Shown: in pieces, positions 1,100 to 39,794 of the stretch
How the letters are laid out: each line of letters starts with the position of its first letter
Numbering within the stretch: position 1 is the stretch's first letter
From: Mobula hypostoma
Taxonomy: Eukaryota
DNA length: 64,000 nucleotides
NCBI RefSeq assembly: GCF_963921235.1
Contig: NC_086097.1
Coordinates: 146,198,001-146,262,000 of the forward strand
Direction of reading: 5' to 3'
Notes under the pieces: generated by a model
The model's database searches: none
What the model was told of the DNA's origin: nothing
What the model saw: the letters and a program-made list of their open reading frames with translations, nothing else
Made by a program: the position numbers and the translations under genes

Positions 1100-1248
1100 C
1101 CTACTGGCAGTTAACCTTGGAAGCCAAACAAATGCTACACCTTCCCATAACACCACCTCCTCACCACCATTCAGGGCCCCAAAAAGTCCTTCCTGGTGAG
1201 GTGCACTTTGCCTCCAGTCTGTCAGGGTCATCTACTTATATCCGGTAC
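1100..1248 (+). mobile_element. Penelope-like element remnant, left part (GIY-YIG region), interrupted by CR1
   Basis: Aligns with the Penelope remnant at 23500-23610 (aaatgctacacct...ccattcag...cctggtgagg...gtcatctac) and continues at 5434 after the CR1. Confidence 0.75.
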
Positions 1249-1313
1249 CATAGAAACTACAGTACAGAAACAGGCCCTTTGGCCCTTCTTGGCTGTGCCG
1301 AACCATTTTCTGC

Positions 1314-4250
1314 CTAGTCCCACTGACCTGCACATGGACCATATCCCTCCATACACCTCCCATCCATGTATCTGTCCAATTTATTCTTAAATGTTAAAAA
1401 AGAACCCGCATTTACCACTTCGTCTGGCAGCTCATTCCACACTCCCACCACTCTCTGTGTGAAGAAGCCCCCTCTAATGTTCCCTTTAAACTTTTCCCCC
1501 CTCACCCTTAACCCATGTCCTCTTAGATTACTCCACTTTTTCTCCCCTTGCCTCAGTGGAAAAAGCCTGCTTGCATTCACTCTATCTATACCCATCATAA
1601 TTTTATATACCTCTATCAAATCTCCCCTCATTCTTCTACGCTCCAGGGAATAAAGTCCTAACCTATTCAACCTTTCTCTGTAACTGAGTTTCTCAAGTCC
1701 CGGCAACATCCTTGTAAACCTTCTCTGCACTCTTTCAACCTTATTTATATCCTTCCTGTAATTTGGTGACCAAAACTGAACACAATACTCCAGATTCGGC
1801 CTCACCAATGCCTTATACAACCTCATCATAACATTCCAGCTCTTATACTCAATACTACGATTAATAAAGGCCAATGTACCAAAAGCTCTCTTTATGACCC
1901 TATCTACCTGTGACGACACTTTTAGGGAATTTTGTATCTGTACTCCCAGATCCCTCTGTTCCACTGCACTCCTCAGTGCCTTACCATTAACCCTGTATGT
2001 TCTACGTTGGTTTGTCCTTCCAACGTGCAATACCTCACACTTGTCAGTATTAAACTCCATCTGCCATTTTTCAGCCCATTTTTCCAGCTGGTCCAAGTCC
2101 CTTTGCAGGCTCTGAAAACCTTCCTCACTGTCTACTACACCTCCAATCTTTGTATCATCAGCAAACTTGCTGATCCAATTTACCACATTATCATCCAGAT
2201 CATTGATATAGATGACAAATAACAATGGACCCAGCACTGATCCCTGTGGCACACCACTAGTCACAGGCCTCCACTCAGAGAAGCAATTTTCTACCACCAC
2301 TCTCTGGCTTCTTCCATCGAGCCAATATCCAATCCAATTTACCACCTCTCCATGTATACCTAGCAACTGAATTTTCCTAACTAACCTCCCATGCGGGACC
2401 TTGTCAAAGGCCTTACTGAAGTCCATGTAGACAATATCCACTGCCTTCCCTTCACCCACTTTCCTGGTAACCTCCTCGAGAAACTCCAACAGATTGGTCA
2501 AACATGACCTACCACGCACAAAGCCATGTTGACTCTCCCTAATAAGCCCCTGTCTATCCAAATGCTTGTAGATTCTGTCTCTTAGTACTCCCTGAAATAA
2601 CTTACCTACTACTGACGTTAAACTCACTGGCCTATAATTTCCCGGATTACTTTTCGATCCTTTTTTAAACAACGGAACAACATGAGCCACTCTCCAATCC
2701 TCCGGCACTGCACCCGTAGACAGCGACATTTTAAATATTTCTGCCAGGGCCCCCGCAATTTCAACACTAGTCTCCTTCAAGGTCCGAGGGAAGACCCTGT
2801 CAGGTCCCGGGGATTTATCCACTTTAATTTTCCTCAAGACAGCAAGCACCTCCTCCTTTTCAATCTGTACAGTTGCCATGGTTTTACTACTTGATTCCCT
2901 CAATTCCATAGATTTCATGCCAGCTTCCTTAGTAAATACAGACGCAAAAAACCTATTTAAGATCTCCCCCATTTCCTTTGGTTCCGCACAAAGCCGACCA
3001 CTCTGATTTTCAAGAGGACCAATTTTATCCCTTACAATCCTTTTGCTCTTAATATACTTGTAAAAGCTCTTTGGATTATCCTTCACTTTGACTACCAAGG
3101 CAACCTCATGTCTTCTTTTAGCCCTCCTGATTTCTTTCTTAAGTATTTTCTTGCACTTCTTATACTCCTCAAGCACCTGATTTACTCCCTGTTTCCTATA
3201 CATTTCATACAACTCCCTCTTCTTCTTTATCAGAGTTGCATTATCCCTTGAGAACCAAGGTTCCTTATTCCTATTCAATTTGCTTTTAATCCTGACAGGA
3301 ACATACAAACTCTGCACTCTCAAAATTTCCCCTTTGAAGGCCTCCCACCTACCAATCACATCTTTGCCAGAGAACAACCTGTCCCAATCCACGCTTTTTA
3401 GATCCTTTCTCATTTCTTCAAATTTGGCCTTCTTCCAGTTCAGAACCTCAACCCTAGGACCAGATCTATCCTTGTCCATGATCAAATTGAAACTAATGGC
3501 GTTATGATCACTGGAACCAAAGTGCTCCCCTACACAGACTTCCGTCACTTGTCCTAACTCGTTTCCTAACAGGAGATCCAATATTGCATCCCCTCTAGTT
3601 GGTCCCTCTATATACTGATATAGAAAACTTTCCTGAACACATTTTACAAACTCTAAACCATCTAGACCCCGAACAGTATGGGAGTCCCAATCAATGTATG
3701 GAAAATTAAAATCCCCTACCACCACAACTTTATGTTTCCTGCAGTTGTCTGCTATCTCTCTGCAGATTTGCTCTTCCAAGTCTCGTTGACTATTGGGTGG
3801 TCTGTAATACAATCCCACTAATGTGGCCATACCTTTCCTGTTTCTCAGCTCCACCCATAAGGACTCAGTAGACAAGCCCTCTAATCTGTCCTGCCTGAGC
3901 ACTGCTGTAATATTTTCCCTAACAAGCAATGCTACTCCCCCACCTTTCATTCCTCTGCCTCGATCACATCTGAAACATCGGAACCCTGGAATATTAAGCT
4001 GCCAGTCCTGCCCCTCCTGTAGCCAAGTTTCACTAATTGCTACAACATCATAATTCCACGTGTCAATCCACGCCCTCAACTCATCCGCCTTCCCCGCAAT
4101 ACTCCTAGCATTGAAATATATACACCTCAGAAGATTTTTACCACCACTCACAACCTTTCTATCAGCGGATTTGCTTAAACTTTCAACATCATTTATTTTC
4201 ACCCCAGCCACACTGTCAGCTCTGGCACTCTGGTTCCCATCCCCCTGCAA
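1314..4250 (-). CDS. CR1 ORF2: APE endonuclease + reverse transcriptase (about 978 aa, no initiating AUG)
   Basis: APE motifs YFNARS, ISETWL, GDFN, SDH; RT motifs PGPD, YRPVSLTS, DFSKAFD, GVPQGSVLGP, FADD; uninterrupted frame. The track start is TTG and the first Met lies inside the endonuclease domain. Confidence 0.95.
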   Translation of the reverse strand: MQGDGNQSARADSVAGVKINDVESLSKSADRKVVSGGKNLLRCIYFNARSIAGKADELRAWIDTWNYDVVAISETWLQEGQDWQLNIPGFRCFRCDRGRGMKGGGVALLVRENITAVLRQDRLEGLSTESLWVELRNRKGMATLVGLYYRPPNSQRDLEEQICREIADNCRKHKVVVVGDFNFPYIDWDSHTVRGLDGLEFVKCVQESFLYQYIEGPTRGDAILDLLLGNELGQVTEVCVGEHFGSSDHNAISFNLIMDKDRSGPRVEVLNWKKAKFEEMRKDLKSVDWDRLFSGKDVIGRWEAFKGEILRVQSLYVPVRIKSKLNRNKEPWFSRDNATLIKKKRELYEMYRKQGVNQVLEEYKKCKKILKKEIRRAKRRHEVALVVKVKDNPKSFYKYIKSKRIVRDKIGPLENQSGRLCAEPKEMGEILNRFFASVFTKEAGMKSMELRESSSKTMATVQIEKEEVLAVLRKIKVDKSPGPDRVFPRTLKETSVEIAGALAEIFKMSLSTGAVPEDWRVAHVVPLFKKGSKSNPGNYRPVSLTSVVGKLFQGVLRDRIYKHLDRQGLIRESQHGFVRGRSCLTNLLEFLEEVTRKVGEGKAVDIVYMDFSKAFDKVPHGRLVRKIQLLGIHGEVVNWIGYWLDGRSQRVVVENCFSEWRPVTSGVPQGSVLGPLLFVIYINDLDDNVVNWISKFADDTKIGGVVDSEEGFQSLQRDLDQLEKWAEKWQMEFNTDKCEVLHVGRTNQRRTYRVNGKALRSAVEQRDLGVQIQNSLKVSSQVDRVIKRAFGTLAFINRSIEYKSWNVMMRLYKALVRPNLEYCVQFWSPNYRKDINKVERVQRRFTRMLPGLEKLSYRERLNRLGLYSLERRRMRGDLIEVYKIMMGIDRVNASRLFPLRQGEKKWSNLRGHGLRVRGEKFKGNIRGGFFTQRVVGVWNELPDEVVNAGSFLTFKNKLDRYMDGRCMEGYGPCAGQWD

Positions 4251-4252
4251 AT

Positions 4253-5188
4253 CTAGTTTAAAGCCTCCCCAATAGCACTAACAAACCTCCCTGAAAGGAT
4301 ATTGGTCCCCCTCTGGTTCAAGTGTAACCCGTCTCTCTTGTACAGGTCCCACCTGCCCCAGAAGAGGTCCCAATGATCCTGAAATCTGAAACCCTGCCCC
4401 CTACACCAGTTCCTCAGCCACTTGTTCCTCCTCCAGAGCATCCTATTCCTACCCTCACTGGCACCTAGCATAGGTAGCAATCCTGAGATTACCACCCTGG
4501 AGGTCCTGCTTTTCAACTTCCTACCAAGCTCTCTATACTCACTGTCCAGGACCTCTTCACTCTTCCTTGCTATGTCATTGGTGCCTATGTGCACCACGAC
4601 ATCTGGCTGGTCACCCTCCCACTTCAGAATGTCATGCAATCGATCAGAGACATCCTTGACCCTGGCACCTGGGAGGCAACAAACCATCCTGGATTCTCTG
4701 TCACGACCACAGAACCTCCTATCTGTACCTCTAACTATCGAGTCCCCTATCACTACCGCTCTCCTCTTTTCCCCCCCTCCCTTCTGCACTGCAGAGCCAG
4801 ACTCAGTGCCAGAGATCCGGCTACTGCAGCTAGTCCCAGGTAAGTCATCCCCCCCAACAGTATCCAATGCGGTATACTTGTTGCTGAGGGGAATGGCCAC
4901 AGGGGAACCCTGCTCTGCCTGCCCTTTCCTCTTCCCTCGCCTGACAGTGACCCAATTTCCTGTCCTCTGCTCCTTTGGCGTAACTACCTCCCTGTAGCTA
5001 CGATCTATAATGTCCTCATTCTCCCGAATGATCCGCAGGTCATCCAGCTCCTGCTCCAGTTCCCTAACGCAGTTTGTCAGGAGCTGCAGCTGGATGCACT
5101 TCTTGCAGGTGTCGTTGTCAGGGACACCAGAGGGCTCCCTGACTTCCCACATCCTGCAAGAGGAGCATTCCAACATCCTGCCTGGCAT
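4253..5188 (-). CDS. CR1 ORF1: zinc finger/leucine zipper + SGNH-type esterase (311 aa from first ATG)
   Basis: CSSC...CKKC, coiled coil VRELEQELDDLR, esterase blocks IGDSIVRG, HIGTND, DGLHLN; ATG at 5188. Confidence 0.92.
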   Translation of the reverse strand: MPGRMLECSSCRMWEVREPSGVPDNDTCKKCIQLQLLTNCVRELEQELDDLRIIRENEDIIDRSYREVVTPKEQRTGNWVTVRRGKRKGQAEQGSPVAIPLSNKYTALDTVGGDDLPGTSCSSRISGTESGSAVQKGGGEKRRAVVIGDSIVRGTDRRFCGRDRESRMVCCLPGARVKDVSDRLHDILKWEGDQPDVVVHIGTNDIARKSEEVLDSEYRELGRKLKSRTSRVVISGLLPMLGASEGRNRMLWRRNKWLRNWCRGQGFRFQDHWDLFWGRWDLYKRDGLHLNQRGTNILSGRFVSAIGEALN

Positions 5189-5433
5189 TCGCTCTACGCC
5201 TGACAATCTGAACAAAATACTTACTGGAACCTACCCTGGCCTGTGCCTGTCCTCGCCGAAGCCTGTTTGAGCCAAAGCCGTCCTACTCTGACTCAGTCCA
5301 CTCCAATGATGGCCGCTGTATATGGTCGTCTGCTTTTTAAACCTTGGCGCACTACGTCACGCGCCTGCGCAGTGCAGACCCTTCTCCCCGAGCAGTTCTT
5401 TAAAAGAAAAACGATTTTTCGACCCGAAATTCT

Positions 5434-5890
5434 TCCGGTACTCATGGTACAGCCTCCTCCACATCAGGGAAACCTGACACAGATTGGGTGACTGCTTTGC
5501 TGAGCACCCTTGCTCTGTCTGCTGCAAGAGGCAGGACATCCTGGTGGATATCCATTTTAACTCAACTTCCCACTCCTATTCTCGCCTGTCTGTCCATGGC
5601 CTCCTGTGCTGCCATGTTGAGGCCAAATTCAGGTTGGAGGAACACCACCTCATATTCCATCTGAGTAGCCTCCAACCTGATGGCATAGACTTCTGGTACG
5701 GTCCGGTAATTTCTCTCCCACCCTCTTGCTTACTCCTTTCCCTCCCCCACCTCTTATTCTGGCTTCTGCCTCCTTCCTTTCCAGTCTGGATAAAGGGTCT
5801 CAGTCAGAAATGTTGACTATTTGTTCCTCTCCATAGATTCTGCCTGAGTTGTTGATTTCCTCCAGCATTTTGTGTGCGCGTGTGTGTGTT
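5434..5890 (+). mobile_element. Penelope-like element remnant, right part (GIY-YIG C-terminal half + pLTR)
   Basis: Encodes GDCFAEH...HFNSTSHS...LEEHHLIFHLSSLQPDGI, followed by a pyrimidine tract and the pLTR motif aagggtctcag...gaaatgttgac...cagcattttgtgtg. Confidence 0.8.
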
Positions 5891-27924: not shown

Positions 27925-28715
27925 ATAGCGGGATCATGATCAGCTAAGTGAGTGGGCTGAGGAATGGCAAGTGGAGTTTAATTCAGGTAAGTATCAGGTA
28001 TTGCACTTTGGACTTTCACAGGGCTTTGGAGTGTTGCAGATCAGAGGGACCCTAGAGTACAAGTACAAGGTACACTGAAAGTGGATTCGCAGGTAGACGG
28101 GGTGGAGAAGATGACGTTTGTCACGCTGGCCTCTACAAGTCAGCATTAAGAATAACATTTGGGAGGTCATGATACAGTTGTAGAGGACATTGGTGATGCT
28201 ACACTTGGAGTATTTTGTTCCGTTTCAGTCACCCTGTTATAGGAAAGATGTATTAAAACTGGAAAGAGTAGAGACAGATTTACAAGGATGCTGCCAGGAT
28301 TTAGTTACAGGGAGAGTTTGAATGGGCTACAATTAGACTGGGGGGAGAACTCCGAGAGGTGTATGAAATTGAGAGGGGCATAGATAGGGTAAAGACACTC
28401 CGTTTGTTTCCCTCCATTTGGGAAATCAAACACTAGGGATATATGTTTAAGTTGACAGGGAAGTGATTTAAGAAAACTTGAGGGCATTTTTTTTCAACAA
28501 AGGGGGTGCTATCTATTTGGAATCAGCTGCCAGAGGTAGTGGTTGAGGCAGGTACAATAACAAATTTTAGTAGACAGTTGGACAGGAACAGGGATTGGAA
28601 AGGTTTAGAAAGTTTTTGTCCACATGCTGTCAAATGAGACTAGCTTGGATGGAGCATCTGGTTGATGTGGACCAGTTGGGGCGAAAGGCCTGTTTCCATC
28701 CTGTACAACTCGATA
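27925..28715 (+). mobile_element. 5'-truncated degenerate CR1
   Basis: Decayed RT C-terminus (W-A-E-E-W-Q, QRD.., RFTRMLPG) and 3' hairpin region gaaaggcctgtttccat. Confidence 0.8.
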
Positions 28716-31210: not shown

Positions 31211-32048
31211 TGGTCATCATGTGTTTAATGCTAGAGTCTCTCAGTACACATCAGTTCTAGAATATTCCAGAAATAGTTGTCATTGTTCTCTTAAGCTTTC
31301 CAATACATTTACTACATTCTGAAGGTCAGATGCATAAATATGTTGGAAAGATAACCATGCCCACAGTCACTGCAATTTTTATATAAATTTAGGCAGCCTT
31401 GACTGGAATATGTCACGTTCACTCTTTTTGTGAGCCTTGTTCATTGAGGAAAAGTCTAGGGGCAGCGCAAGTTTTAGAGCTGCAGCCTCAAAGCTCAGCC
31501 ATTCTGTTTCAATCCTGACCTCATCTGGTGTCTTCGTGGTGTTTTCCATCACCCCGTGACAGTGCAAGTCTTCTCCGACTGCACCTAGCTTTTTTTCGCG
31601 TCCCAGTGTTGTGTGACTTGCTTGGTAATTTGTCCCTGGTGTGGAGGTGAGTGGTGGATTCTAGAGGAGTTGATGAGGATGGGGGGAGAGCATAACAGGA
31701 TGAGTTGGTGGTCAAGGTGGGTTCAATGGGTTGAAGCAGCTGCTTTTGTGTTGTCTGACTTTTTTAATAACTTGCTGTGCTGCTTTCTGTAATGTGAGGA
31801 TGTTCTCCTGAGTTTTGATAAAGCTGAGAACTGTGTGCTGTGCATTGATGCTCTTCTCTCGCCAACTTACTTTCCATGTTTTCTGCCAACACCACTAGTG
31901 AAAGGTTCAATAATTTTTCTTCTGCAAATCCATTTTAAGTTGTTCATAACTAACCATTTGAATTACATTTTGATTACCACTAAACCACACTGCATGAAGC
32001 AAGTGCCCTTGCTGATGAATCCTCACCTATAACCTTGTTTTACTAAAG

Positions 32049-35000
32049 ATGGCTCGGAACATGGATAAGATCCGATCATCGGAAGTGAGCCAGACCACGG
32101 AGGATGAATTTTTACCACCACCACCTCCTGATCTGCTTGAAGCTTCCACCAAGCCAGATGTAACAATGAAAGAGCAGACTCAAAAAATCTTACCCCCTCC
32201 ACGTCAGACCTTTGTCAAGTTCCATCAGCAACGGCAAATTAATGAATTGAAGAGGCTGTATAAGCACATGCACCCAGAGCTAAGGAAAAATTTGCAGGAG
32301 GTGGTCACTGAGGATTGGGCAGAAGTGCTGAATGCTGAACGCGTGGCTGCAGACTTAACAACTGGTGTCCACGGCAACAGTGATGCAGCACTTCAAACCG
32401 AGGTCCAGTCCATGCGCTGGATATTTGATAACTGGCCACTGGACACAATTGGAGATCACCAAGCTACTAAGAAGATGAAGGAAGAGGAGGCCATCCTCAG
32501 TGGAGATGTGAAGAGCACATCATGGAAGTTTGAAAACCAAACAATAGATGCCATCAGTTCCCAGCACTCTGAATTTTCTGCAAATTCCAGTGTTGCAAAA
32601 GAGCAAACAAAGGGTGATGTCCGCACAGCTTTGTGGCTGTTTGAAACTCAGCCAATGGATTCCCTGAATAAAATGTACTCCAAAGACAATGATCTACAAG
32701 AAGCAGTTCTGAAGGAACCATTACAAAAAGGAGATGTCAGAGGTACCAAGCTATTATTTGAAACTCATCCGTTGAGTGACTTGGGACGAAGCAACTCAAT
32801 GGAAGAAAGCAGCTTATTGCAACTGCGTTCAGAAGTACAAGAGGTGAAAGGGGATGTGAACAGAACCGTGAAGCTTTTTGAAACAGAGCCACTGTGTGCC
32901 ATTCGTGATACTGCCGGCAATATTCACCAGATCAAATCTATCTGCAGAGAAGAAATCCAACAGAGTGGTAATGTGCAAAGCACTCGGTGGCTATTTGAAA
33001 CACAGCCCCTCAGTAGCATTAACAGAGATTTCTCAAGGATGAAAATTATTCGAGGCATCTCCCTGGAAGGGACACAACAGGGGGGAAGTGTTGGCAAAAA
33101 GCGATGGCTCTTTGAAACACAGGCCTTGGACACCATCAAAGAGCAGACTGAGGAGTCAGACAGTAACATCGACGTCAGGGTGATAGAAGGAGGAGATGTA
33201 AATCAGAAATGCTGGCTTTTTGAAACTCAACCTCTTGACTCATTAAAAGAAAGTTCACCTGAAGAGCTATCTAAGGAACCAGTAATTGGAGGTAATGTGA
33301 ACTCTACTCTTTGGTTGTTTGAGACTCAGCCAATGGAAGTCCTGAAAGACAGCTTTGAAGTTAGCCAATTGAAAAGAGTTATTACAGAAGAAGAAAAGGG
33401 AGATGTGAAGCATAAGGCTCATGTGTTTGAAAGCTGTTCTATAGACAGCATCAACAAAGAACAATGTGACACTTCCAAAAGCAGTGAAGATACATTGGAG
33501 ATACAGAAGGGAGATGTCAAAGCTTACAAGTGTCTTTTTGAAACACTTCCCCTTGATTGTATTAAAAATTCTGAAGAAATATTAGTGGGGAATCATGTAG
33601 AAGTCTTGGGTGGAAATGTAAATGAGAACAGAGTTCTCTTTGAAACTGTCCCCCTTTATGCTATCATGGATGGTGCAGGCCACTGTCATCAAGTCAAGAC
33701 AGTAAGCCGAGAGCAAGTCATTAGTGGAGATGTCAAACACTATAAGTGGATGTTTGAAACCCGCCGCCTGGATCAGTTTGATGAAAGTACACAAAATGTG
33801 GAATTGGTTAAAGGCATCACCAAAGAGGAGATCCGATCCAACAACATGGAGACAACAAGGTGGCTATTTGAAACACAGCCGCTTGATGTAATCCACGCTA
33901 ATGTCAACAAAACAGAAAATCAGGGCTCTGAAAGGGAAGATTTAGTGAAAGGTGATGTGAGGACATGTAGGTGGCTGTTTGAAACACAGCCAATGGATGC
34001 TTTGTATGAAAAAGCTGAAGTTAAGCAAGACTGTGAAATGCAACCGAAAGGTGATGTCAAATCATACACCTGGCTCTTTGAAACACAAGCACTGGACAGC
34101 ATCAATGAGAATGAAGAGCAACACCTGAAAGTCCACACCATGCAAATGGATGATGTTAAAGGGGTTGATGTGAAGACTAAAAGATATCTGTTTGAAACAG
34201 AACAATGTGGAAATCTTGCTGGGGAATTTGATGCAGCTCAGAACATGAGGTACACAAGTGAAGTGGACATCCAGTCTGGGAAGGTGTCAAGAGTGAAAGA
34301 AATTTATCAGAGCACTTCACTCAGTGAAATAGGCGACACAGAAGAGAAGAGAAATAGCTTCACATCCTCAGAAGAGGATGGCACACAGCCGGGATCGGGC
34401 TGTGTACACAAGTTCACTTGGCTCTTTGAAAATTGCCCAATTAGCTCCATTAAAGAAACGCCTGAAGAGGCAATACCCAAGAGCACAATCACTGACGTAA
34501 AGGGGGGCGATGTTGGTGGCAAAAGGTTTGTTTTTGAGACCTATTCACTGGACCAAATAAAAGAGGACACTGATATGAAGGAATTGCATTCAACAAGGGA
34601 AGAAACTAATGCCAAGGGTGATGTGAAGTCATGCACCATGCTGTTCGAAACACAACCCCTCTATGCACTTCGGGATAAGGAAGGCCAGTATCATGAAGTT
34701 ACTACAGCAAAGAAAGAGGAAATCATGAAGGGTGATGTAAGAGGAACCAGGTGGCTCTTTGAAACAAAACCATTGGACACAATCAGGCCAATGGATGAGG
34801 TATTTGTGATCAGAGCTGTCACACAGGAAGATGTGCACAAAGGAGATGTGACAGCAGCTCGATGGAAATTTGAGACCCAGCCTTTGGATTCAATCAGAGA
34901 TGAAGCACAGCCAAGAATAAAGGTAGTGGATGAGGTTCAGGGAGGAGATGTTCAATCAAACAAGCAACGCTTTGAAGGGCAACAAGCAAGCCAGAGATAT

Positions 35001-38000
35001 GTGAGGATGGTTAGTGTCAGTGATGTTCAGAGTGGAGATGTCAGGACATCAACTTGGCTGTTTGAAAACATGCCCATTGACTGTTTGAAGGGAGAAACTG
35101 AAGAAACCACGGGTACGACGACAGTCCAACGAGAAGATATACAGAAAGGGGATGTGAAGAGATGTACTTGGCTGTTTGAGTCCCAACCACTGGATAGCCT
35201 AAAAGATTCAGACTTTTCAATTGACAAAGAAACCAAGGAGGAAGTGACTTGTGCAGATGTAAAGACTACAACATGGTTGTTTGAAACAACACCTTTAGAC
35301 ACATTCATTCTTTCACAATGTAGCACAGAAAGCACCAAGATGACAGAACAAAATATCCGTACAAGCTTGGAAACCCTCATCAACTCTGGAGCCATCAAGT
35401 CAAAGGGACTTATTATTGAATCAAGTGAGACAGGCATTCTAAAAATGGCCAAATATCAACTGATGAGTCAGAATGATCCACATATTCTCAAAGAAGAAGT
35501 TATAGGTGGAAACATGCAGAGAATTCTGATGCAGTTACTTCAAAGGAAGGAATCCCTTTATTCTGAAGGTATCATGCTGAAGGAAGATGAAAACGGAAGG
35601 ATTTCTCAAAGTAAGATTCAGCTTTTTGGCCAGTCAGGAGTTAACATTAATGAAAAGATTGTTAAAGAAGAAAGCACTCATACAATTTCTAGCTTTTTAA
35701 TGGAAGACAGTAAAATGAAACAAGGGATTTTGATTCAAGAAACCGACAAAGGAATTGCTCAGATTACCATCTATTCTCTTGTTAACCGGCCTCAATTTGA
35801 GGAGGTTGAAAATGGGACAATCAAAGGAGATGTAAAGTCTACAATTAATAGTCTTCTTGCTTCAACTCAGCAGCAGACTGCATCAACAGTAAAACGTGAG
35901 AAAAATGAAAGAGGAAATGTACAACTTTACACAACGTGCATTGAATCTGGGACACTGGACTATCTCAAAGGCCATCAGGAGGATTCTGATGATCCTGATG
36001 TTTCCTCTCAGGAAAAGGAGATTGTACGTGGTGATGTTGAAGGTGCCATAAGAAACCTAACAGAGAGCAGAGGCCAAATTGAAAAGTCAGTTGCTGATAT
36101 TATACCAGGAGATGTCCAAGGAACCAAAAAATACTTTTTAACAGAAGCACAGCGAGGCCAATGTGTTACTCAGAGAGATGGTGCATTTGATGCTGATGTC
36201 AGTTTTGCTCATCAGACCTTTGGGCAGGCTGCGAATGCAGGATTAAAAGACGAAATTGCACCTGGTGATGTTAAAACCAAGATGCAGTCACTGGACAATG
36301 TAAAATACCAAACAAAAATCCTGGATATGGAACATATTCCTCGCGGTAATGTGAAGGACCCGCTGCAGGAGTCAATATGTGATAAGAAAGAAGCAAGAGT
36401 AAAAGAGTGTACAGAATCCAGCTTTTGCTCACGAAGTGAAGGCTCCATCAGAGTTTCTAAGATGGGTGCAGAAAATGCCACAGGTCAGGACCTTCAGACA
36501 GCAATGGAGAACCTCAGAGAAGTTACTGCCAAAGCACATAGCATACAGCAGAAATCTAGGGTGCAAGAACATTTCCAGAGGAAATCACAAAGTACAGCAG
36601 AAGCTCCAGAACATTGTCACCAAGGCAATCAATTCAGGAATACGCTGGAGAAAGAGACAAAGAAGCACGCTCAGATCTCCACACAACAGCAAAGCAGTGC
36701 AGCATCAAGACATCAAGCAAGTGCCCATGTGACTGTCAAGCAGTACCAACAACTAAAGAGCCAACAGGATAGTCATCAGGTCAGTGCCTCTGTGGGAACG
36801 GAAGGACTTGTGGCGTTTGTGGCTTGCTCAAGTGAAAGTCAGAAATGTGAACACTTAACTGACATAGTTCAAAGCAGCAGAGGTGAGATGAGAGCTGCCT
36901 CAGAACAGATGCTGTCTCACGGTCAGCACTTGTTCAATACCTTAGAGAAGGAAGATCGGGCAGTAGCAGATCAGGAAATAATTGTCAAGGGCGACATAAA
37001 GTCAACTATAGAAGCTTTAAAGGATTCAGTGACAGAGCAAAGATCCATTGAGAAAGATGAGGTGGTCCGAGGTAATTTGCAGGCAGCTCTCCAATCCCTG
37101 GGAAAAGCTAATATGAACGTATCCAAAGGCGATTTTAAAGCCGCCATGATATATAGAACAGCAGGCCAGTCACATTCACGTGACCAAAAGAAGAGTGGTG
37201 TTAGAACTGTTTGTAATCAGATTTCACTACCACAGTCTGATGTTGAGTTTCCTTCTGCAGTTCCAGTGACAAAGTCCACTGTACCGTCGAACAAAGCTTG
37301 TGGCCATCTTCCAGTGGAAGGCACCCCTCTTCCTTTAAACCAGACAAGTCCACCTGCAGTGAAAAATCCAGCTTCGTCGCAATTTCCTCCACTACTTCCA
37401 CTCAAGACGAAGGAACAAAACATCGCAAATAAACCATCTATTGCACCAAAGCCACCTTCAATCCCTCCAAGACACATGCCAGTGCAGGGTGGGAAACCTA
37501 CTCTGCCTCCTAAACCAGAATATTTGCAAGTAATCCATGCTGTTCCAAGTCCACCCCCTCCACCAAGAAACTATGCATCAGTCATGCCTAAATCAAACCC
37601 ATTACCTCCAGTTGTGTGCAAATCACCTCCAGTAAAACCTACAAGAGCATCACTTCCTACAGTAACTACCACTCCATCAAAGTGTCAGGAAATGGAGCCA
37701 GAGAGGCAACAAGAACAGCTTCATTTGGAAGAAAAATCCACCACAATGCCTTCTTACACCACGGTAAAGAAAACTCCTTTGCAGTTGGCAGAGGAGAAAT
37801 ACAGGAAAGAAAAGGAAGGGCAGAGCAAGTTAAATGCGATGGTAACTCACCCATTATCAAATATACCACTGCAAGAGATGCAGCAGAGAGGAAGAAACTC
37901 CACTGGATGTCTTGATTACACCAACGTCTCCATGACAAGAGAACCAGAAGTGATACCTAACCAACAGAATGCTGCAGCGGAAGTCCAGCGGTTCGCACAG

Positions 38001-39794
38001 TCCTGTTCAAAAGAAAGCACAGCAAGCACTGAAATGTTTCAGGGAATGGTATCTGCTCCTCAAACCTTTGGTACCCAAAACAAACCAAATTCTACTCAAA
38101 TGGGCCTGCCGAACAACCCAGAAAAGAATCGGACAATGACCGAGGATAGATCTAATTTATCAAAGCAAGTTAAAACTGTGTCACCGACAACCTCTGCCAG
38201 GATCATTGCCCCACAGAGCTACCAACAAGCACAACTGAGTGCCGAGTCACATCACCGACAGCCAGTCAAAGCTTCGTTTGAACAATCAGAGTGTCAGACT
38301 GCCCAACGTCATGGGTGCTCCAACCAGCACCGGTTTAGTAACCAAGCACTAGCTGCAAATGACCAACAAGTGTTGTTGGACCAACAGCTGCAGCACAGCC
38401 CACGACCAGATGCAGTTGTCATGCGAGAGGGCCGACAACAATGTAAAGAGACAGAGGATGACCGCAGAAAAAGGTTATCTGTTCACAAGGAGGAGATAAT
38501 GAGAGGAAACGTGAAAGCAGCAATGGAGATCTTTGAAAACCTAAAGAAAAGAGAAGAATTGCAGAAGATATTGACCAGAGTTAAAGAATTTGAAGAGGAG
38601 ACTTTTAAAGTTGATGTGAAAGGTCTGAAGAGTTTATTTGAGAATGTGCCTGAGTGGGTGGTGCCTAAGAATAATGGGGTAAAGCAACTTAAAGCAGTTG
38701 ACAGCCGGAAGGATGAGATGCAGAATCAGCCCAGGATGGTCAAAGATGAAGCAGAAAGTTTGTCTTCAGTGGAACTTGTGTTTGAAGATCTTGAAAGGGC
38801 AAGTGCAGAGATAACGTATCTGAAGGAGCAGACATTGGCAAAGTTATTACATATTGAGGAGTCCATTAAGAAAGCCCTGTATTCAGTCTCCAACCTGAAA
38901 TCAGAGTCTGACATTGCAGGTCTCTCTGGTTTATTCGGAGAGTCACTGGGAGCTGCCACAAACTCCGCTACTCCTGGCAATATCAAGAAAATCAGTTTGG
39001 CCTCCAGCAAATCAAGCTCAGAGAACACCATGCAATTGAAAGAATATCATTCTCACAAAGAACAGTTAGAAAAGTCACTGGATCAAGCCAGGCCATCATT
39101 GGATATTCCACCTGTTTCCGCTCGTGTGGGCTCTCCATCATCTCCTTCCTACATTTCCATTGAATCAGCAGTTAGAAAACCTGCAGGTCCTTTGAAAACA
39201 AAATCATCTGCCTCACATCTTGACATTGAGTCCTTTTCACCCTCTCCTCAAAATCAAGCTGTCCCATCCTGTTCTGCAAAAGTGACAACCATTGATGATT
39301 GCAATGGTTTTTTTCTTTGCAATGGATACAAAAGTGCCAGCAAACAAACAGAGTTACCAAAACAACATTCGGTGCCAAGAAAGGAATTTGTGCAAAAAGA
39401 TACCAACAATGAGTTCATTCAAACAGGCCTAAAGGAAAGCAACATTGTTAAAGGGAGTGACAATGTGGCCAACTCACCTACAGGTTGCATCTCTCTGAGT
39501 GGATTTAAAACCAACGTTGTCGATAGAACTCAGAGCCCAGTGCCCCAGAGAAGCAAAAGTGTTGTGGAGTTCAAGACAGGCCCTGATGGAGGTGAAATAG
39601 TTGGTACAAAGACCATCATGGAAAAATATGAAGAAATTGATCGTTTTGGGAACAAAATTATCACGTCAAAAACCTCAACCACTGTCACAAAGCAGTCTGA
39701 GTCAACAACGTCATCCACATATGAAGTAGTTCAAGCACTACCTAGGTATGATGTTGTTGCTTCGCCCCTTCTTAATAGACATCTGCAGAGTTAG
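32049..39794 (+). CDS. XIRP1: Xin actin-binding repeat-containing protein 1 (2581 aa, single large exon)
   Basis: About 26-27 Xin repeats (GDV-x4-WLFETQPLD); N-terminal EVH1-binding [34 protein letters not shown] matches the XIRP1-type N-terminus; proline-rich region; conserved C-terminal block [17 protein letters not shown]...[12 protein letters not shown]. Confidence 0.93.
   Translation: [2581 protein letters not shown]

Follow-up and report, generated by a model that had tools for sequence, protein, structure and literature searches.

How is a CR1 retrotransposon's second open reading frame (ORF) translated when no usable start codon stands at its beginning? The question is raised by a full-length CR1-type long interspersed nuclear element (LINE) of Mobula hypostoma, which lies on the minus strand of a 64,000-nucleotide (nt) stretch of DNA (RefSeq assembly GCF_963921235.1, contig NC_086097.1, positions 146,198,001 to 146,262,000), hereafter the window, whose numbering is used throughout. 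The mode of LINE ORF2 translation has been called an open question in a review (PMC3894237), and the CR1 group is described as the dominant retrotransposon in most vertebrate species (PMC13343379). At the ORF1/ORF2 junction of this element the heptamer U_UUA_AAC is directly followed by the ORF1 stop codon, and its comparison with related elements makes it likely, in our judgment, that the junction is a programmed -1 ribosomal frameshift site giving an ORF1-ORF2 fusion. The element itself is an ordinary CR1; the novelty lies in the junction mechanism.

The first base of the heptamer closes an Ala codon and its other six bases are the last two codons of ORF1, Leu and Asn; it stands in the X_XXY_YYZ register with the upstream ORF that characterizes eukaryotic -1 frameshift cassettes. 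ORF2 is open through the heptamer in the -1 frame, the two ORFs overlapping with no inter-ORF spacer. Upstream, the ORF2 frame is closed 5 codons before the heptamer, with no near-cognate start among those 5 codons; downstream, a linker of about 50 codons precedes the APE endonuclease, and the first AUG (3950) is only codon 110 of the stop-to-stop frame, about 104 codons past the heptamer and behind the endonuclease motifs NARS (codon 56) and SETW (codon 82). A sequence-only reading of the window had quoted the minus-strand letters of this junction, placed ORF2 in the -1 frame through the heptamer and stated that ORF2 has no in-frame AUG for about 100 codons, past the first endonuclease motifs. 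All three statements hold: the letters match at 4267-4253 with the heptamer at exactly 4262-4256, both ORFs are open, and the first AUG follows NARS and SETW. The heptamer occurs 20 times on the two strands of the window. Among the 6893 stop triplets of the window, one directly follows U_UUA_AAC and 26 (0.4%) follow any X_XXW_WWH heptamer. TTA accounts for 18 of the 118 Leu codons of the element (15%).

The same arrangement was found in published family consensuses (Supplementary Table 2 of PMC13343379, covered to 400 letters from the start of each row, with junctions judged by eye). The heptamer followed by TA gave 23 matches, 17 at a CR1-type ORF1 end and 6 elsewhere, and the heptamer followed by a TGA stop gave six, one of which, a lizard family, lies at a CR1 junction; the resulting total of 18 families is not a census, the rows having been collected mostly through the motif itself or through anchors from those rows. 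By our interpretation of the row prefixes, the hosts of the 17 are chimaera, ray, sawfish, catshark, dogfish, bowfin, teleost, coelacanth, frog, alligator and crocodile; a teleost row with the junction is labelled Crack. The surroundings of the heptamer vary: in the codon before Leu-Asn, positions 1 and 2 differ among families, the third base always being T, and TAG, TAA and TGA are all used as stops across the 18 families. An upstream anchor on the His-Leu codons retrieved nine CR1 rows, with the ORF1 end visible in eight and the heptamer present in 8/8 (22 of 23 places listed), a count that is not independent since the anchors were partly drawn from already known rows. A downstream anchor on a G-run retrieved seven full junctions, all seven with the heptamer, and one row that starts inside the heptamer (24 of 27 places listed). 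Nine strings with another Leu codon or another first base, a subset of the possible variants, gave 17 matches, none of them at a CR1 ORF1 end, and the AAU form of the heptamer marked a junction in none of the 10 places listed out of 16. Elsewhere, the searched supplementary files of PMC4316615 gave two matches, both near the ORF2 3' end and neither at a junction, and the supplement of PMC11303007 gave no match and no junction.

Two further elements could be translated across the junction. One is a second, decayed CR1 family in the window (about 54300-50400, minus strand), near full-length and about 70% identical to the first copy, with one stop in ORF1 and two frame breaks in ORF2; its junction reads U_UUA_AAU followed by TAA. 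The other, L002 from a metagenome scan, encodes an esterase with 43% identity and has the same U_UUA_AAC and TAG. ORF2 is in the -1 phase and open across the site in all three elements, and in the window copy and L002 alike the NARS motif comes before any AUG. An ORF2-frame stop also lies exactly 5 codons before the heptamer in all three (4280-4278 and 53381-53379 in the window, and in L002), a common position that may be a coincidence of ORF1 codons. Because the ORF2 frame is closed there without a near-cognate start, dual coding from an upstream start was rejected as the cause of the fixed heptamer letters. Conservation at the nucleotide level exceeds what the amino acids require in the 18 family consensuses and L002, with ascertainment that is partly motif-driven. 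The sequence-only reading had proposed comparing the heptamer across CR1 consensuses, and had named two patterns that would speak against frameshifting, a phase between ORF1 and ORF2 that varies and synonymous changes that occur freely at these codons; neither was seen, the phase being -1 in 3/3 elements and the heptamer letters fixed in 18 families whose neighbouring bases and stops vary. Its suggestion that the junction may serve programmed -1 frameshifting is supported on these comparative grounds.

The metagenome scan covered 20 loci, and L002 alone had a CR1 junction; 18 loci were bacterial-type or fragmentary, and none of these had such a junction. In the remaining locus, L006 (1301-1750), an esterase-like ORF ends in TGA and is followed in the same phase by an endonuclease-like frame with 138 open codons and no heptamer, possibly a stop-readthrough junction in another LINE. 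Scans of viral contigs gave no vertebrate CR1 match, a plasmid tblastn search gave no match, and 24 prokaryotic matches from a pattern scan of genome contigs were taken as chance by their record titles.

At the protein level, 120 of 163 ORF1 homologues were listed; the 90 with a His-Leu anchor were kept and the 30 without it dropped. Among these listed matches, 85 of the 90 anchored homologues end 19-26 residues past His-Leu, 74 of them at exactly 23, and a Leu-Asn C-terminus is present in 77 of the 85 with an intact end. The eight exceptions comprise one Ile-Asn, one Val-Asn, two short read-throughs, three Leu-Ser-Asn and one Gln-Gly-Asn. Named hosts include sharks, rays, coelacanth, frogs, turtles, lizards and a snake. 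Residues whose codons cannot end in T (K, Q, E, M and W) precede Leu-Asn in only one of the 77 sequences, which fits a fixed first U. The distant esterase ORF1s P0107, P0108, P0110 and P0119 have Leu-Ser-Asn or Gln-Gly-Asn as their C-terminus, placed one or two residues further on; Gln-Gly-Asn might be encoded by G_GGA_AAC, another strong heptamer. A further CR1 ORF1, P0011, with 66% identity to the window ORF1, is deposited as a Pseudomonas aeruginosa hydrolase and is probably host contamination of a bacterial entry.

Contigs of four sequencing runs were aligned to 4000-4560 at 80% likeness, a comparison that is uninformative on expression. Among the 24 of 2306 rows listed, each of the three large runs has its biggest pile of loose ends (352, 319 and 310) at 4262, where the heptamer starts; all three also show a pile at 4221, and one shows another at 4226. 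The pile at 4262 is absent from the matches listed for the fourth run. The match to diverged families therefore starts with the first base of the heptamer and runs out about 40 nt further on. Variable sites among 40 of 188 listed include 4263, just outside the heptamer, and none within 4216-4262, to which little weight was given.

On comparative grounds, the junction is a real and deeply conserved feature that behaves as a -1 frameshift cassette would. What the sequences show directly is the site, its phase, the missing usable AUG and conservation at the nucleotide level; slippage at the heptamer is what we infer from them. In the proposed mechanism, most ribosomes would finish ORF1 and stop at 4255-4253, producing the 311-amino-acid (aa) esterase protein, and a minority, with tRNA-Leu on UUA and tRNA-Asn on AAC, would slip one base back onto UUU and AAA. 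Both tRNAs would move, as the fixed first U of the heptamer suggests. The codon at 4256-4254 would then be read, followed by the linker, the endonuclease and the reverse transcriptase (RT), giving a 1291-aa (148 kDa) ORF1-ORF2 fusion in a Gag:Gag-Pol-like ratio to the esterase protein. The pause would come from the adjacent stop, from a G-rich run downstream or from both, and not from a classic pseudoknot. With rather less confidence, we favour the broader proposal that esterase-bearing CR1s of jawed vertebrates have made their RT only as a frameshift ORF1-ORF2 fusion since before the split of cartilaginous and bony fishes, with the stop and the G-rich element, and no pseudoknot, providing the pause.

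Several observations, besides the way in which the consensus rows and anchors were obtained, weigh against frameshifting. No significant hairpin, pseudoknot or quadruplex was found as a 3' stimulatory structure 5-8 nt downstream of the heptamer. Downstream of the heptamer, 96 nt have a folding energy of -16.3 kcal/mol, weaker than that of most shuffles (z = +1.13), and in a brute-force search shuffled sequences did as well as the best pseudoknot, or better, in 72, 30 and 100 cases out of 100 for the three elements. Quadruplex-aware folding of the same three predicted no quadruplex, and L002 is nearly unstructured downstream of the heptamer. The sequence-only reading had seen no stimulatory pseudoknot by eye; the computed folds and searches agree with it. 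The missing 3' structure makes the junction a weaker fit to the classic pseudoknot type without weakening the working model. The G-rich run has a G4Hunter score of 1.5 (top 0.2-1.8% of windows, the best of 12 windows tried), but its 10-nt spacer is longer than the usual 5-8 nt, and quadruplexes drive -1 shifting in synthetic constructs at spacers of 6-8 nt (PMC3919603); the run may act as a stimulator, which is a lead and not a finding. The G-run could also pair over a distance, at -25.9 kcal/mol, with C-rich sequence some 650 nt upstream in ORF1; this duplex was set aside, the C-rich sequence not being the best partner in the second copy or L002. The protein data are also less clear-cut after clustering, the test on the residue before Leu-Asn giving p = 0.014 at 70% and losing significance at 60% (0.10), and K, Q, E, M and W are similarly scarce at two buried helix positions. 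The second copy alone is weak evidence because, of the 36 codons that the two window copies share near the end of ORF1, 26 have the same DNA sequence anyway. Finally, no natural single-ORF esterase-endonuclease-RT protein was present among 2683 longer candidates (3 matches; a weak test).

The missing stimulator would also suit termination-reinitiation, in which translation restarts in the -1 frame at an AUG overlapping the stop (UAAUG) or at a non-AUG codon, the heptamer serving as a termination or 40S-retention signal. Such a restart has candidate sites, which likewise count against frameshifting: UAAUG is present in 3 of the 18 families (ScyCan_CR1-1a, SquAca_CR1-17a and SquAca_CR1-6c), an in-frame AUG lies 15 codons past the heptamer in the second copy, a TTG lies four codons after the first codon of the heptamer in the window copy, and near-cognate codons occur in the linker of every translated element. 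Precedents have been described in SART1 coupling (PMC3894237) and AUG-independent L1 initiation (PMC5009743). However, the overlapping AUG is absent in 15 of the 18 families, the codons after the stop vary among families, and reinitiation leaves a fixed, in-register heptamer capable of X_XXY_YYZ re-pairing, first U included, without a reason; we regard this route, the main rival of frameshifting, as unlikely.

Alternatively, a Leu-Asn end could be needed by the ORF1 protein alone, with the heptamer as inherited baggage and ORF2 made by other means. The frequency of this end among the listed homologues (77/85), the shared ancestry of related families and the lack of saturation at synonymous sites between the two window copies all agree with this, but protein constraint fixes neither the TTA codon, at 15% usage, nor the preceding T, variant heptamers were absent from CR1 junctions (0/17), and the alignment of the crystallized LINE esterase 4C1B reaches no further than profile position 318 of 322. 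Under a rough null of 0.153 x 0.5 for each lineage, the probability over seven deep host lineages is 1.5e-8, with independence and lack of bias holding only in part for them, and a purely protein-level cause appears very improbable. There is similarly little chance that ORF2 is expressed from spliced RNA, with an AG acceptor at or just after the stop, or through polymerase slippage on the T3A3 run. In the window copy a pyrimidine/A-rich stretch is indeed followed by two AG dinucleotides no more than 11 nt from the heptamer, but AG is missing in families with TAA or TGA stops, and no contig joint ended at those AGs among 15 listed of 299, contigs being a weak test. At three T and three A, the runs are short for polymerase slippage.

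A programmed -1 frameshift would place CR1 beside known systems. U_UUA_AAC is among the most shift-prone eukaryotic heptamers, with the site of infectious bronchitis virus (IBV) named (PMC5009743), and the coronavirus 1a/1b junction of IBV has the identical heptamer in the same register as CR1. Coronaviruses and retroviral gag-pol combine an abundant upstream protein with a rare fused polymerase, as is proposed here for CR1, which differs from them in being a vertebrate non-long-terminal-repeat retrotransposon with an immediate 0-frame stop and neither a pseudoknot nor a hairpin predicted. Among two-ORF LINEs of the APE type, TRE5-A and TRE3-A of Dictyostelium are stated in a figure legend to need a -1 frameshift for ORF2 (PMC5911963); they belong to another clade and another host and have an unrelated ORF1, the likeness lying in the two-ORF layout and the stated -1 frameshift. 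In SART1, UAAUG also puts ORF2 in the -1 frame, and the same UAAUG occurs in the three CR1 families named above. In contrast to SART1 and L1, the window copy has no AUG at the junction, and hence no SART1-type UAAUG overlap, and it lacks an L1-type spacer with an ORF2 AUG before the endonuclease. Moreover, the SART1 and L1 routes yield a separate ORF2 protein and not a fusion. Closest in layout are PriPec_CR1-7, HypSab_CR1-6b and ScyCan_CR1-1a (PMC13343379), with an esterase ORF1, an APE-RT ORF2 and a closely similar junction; the word "frameshift" is absent from the main text of that paper and from the searched portion of its supplement.

No prior proposal of CR1 frameshifting was found in the open-licence literature, a scope outside which the original chicken and turtle CR1 papers lie, and an earlier proposal in literature beyond this survey is possible. 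The portions covered of PMC11835228, PMC13343379, PMC4120745, PMC3905857, PMC2881922, PMC4255032, PMC5006619 and PMC11303007 contain no passage on a CR1 frameshift, and CR1 is not named in the portion covered of a major review of frameshifting. If the proposed mechanism is true, the real CR1 enzyme would be an esterase-endonuclease-RT fusion, which would change the annotation of CR1 ORF2, the picture of its ribonucleoprotein and the design of retrotransposition assays. A Gag-Pol-like strategy would then operate in one of the most abundant groups of vertebrate retrotransposons, with a natural pseudoknot-free frameshift cassette. The junction would also offer a short, directly testable cassette without an obvious pseudoknot.

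The CR1 label of the element is based on its domain layout and on the likeness of its junction to published CR1 rows. ORF1 is an SGNH esterase (Pfam PF13472, E=1.7e-13) with N-terminal Cys pairs, the motifs GDS, GTND and DGLH and the C-terminal Leu-Asn-stop, and 4C1B matched the ORF1 profile with E=1.3e-45. ORF2 matched PF03372 (APE endonuclease, E=1.1e-17) and PF00078 (RT, E=1.8e-34). An SGNH esterase ORF1 upstream of an APE and RT ORF2 is the arrangement of the CR1 clade, as is an 8-bp duplication combined with a 3' end of short repeats, here of TTCT type, without poly(A). Among the matches listed, the named ORF1 relatives nearest to the window copy are from rays and sharks, which points to a cartilaginous fish as the probable host. 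Coordinates are given in Table 1.

Table 1. Features of the CR1-type element and of the second CR1 junction, in window positions.
Feature	Position	Strand	Basis or remark
Full-length CR1-type LINE, 4185 bp, both ORFs open	1249..5433	-	Ends set by duplicated 8-mer
8-bp target-site duplication, 5' copy	5434..5441	-	Duplicated 8-mer
8-bp target-site duplication, 3' copy	1241..1248	-	Duplicated 8-mer
ORF1, 311 aa, ATG at 5188	4253..5188	-	PF13472 and motifs
ORF2, stop-to-stop 987 aa, -1 frame	1314..4277	-	APE endonuclease and reverse transcriptase
Slippery heptamer U_UUA_AAC, ORF1 register	4262-4256	-	Direct reading
ORF1 stop TAG, directly 3' of the heptamer	4255-4253	-	Direct reading; TAA or TGA in relatives
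G-rich run, 10 nt after the heptamer (at +11)	4236..4245	-	Most relatives have a similar run 3' of the stop
ORF2, first in-frame AUG, within the endonuclease domain	3948..3950	-	Direct reading
Junction of second, decayed CR1 family, U_UUA_AAU and TAA	53354..53363	-	Same -1 phase

Further CR1 fragments lie at about 48414-47305 on the minus strand and at 27953-28329 on the plus strand. Both flanks of the target-site duplication (1060-1248 and 5434-5720, plus strand) read as parts of one interrupted, decayed gene, which we take to resemble the end of a Penelope-type GIY-YIG endonuclease, with no Pfam match; the CR1 seems to have landed in an older element. Elsewhere in the window, a single open frame of 2591 codons (32019-39794, plus strand) with 18 Xin repeats (PF08043, E=1.4e-140) is the large exon of a Xin actin-binding repeat gene.

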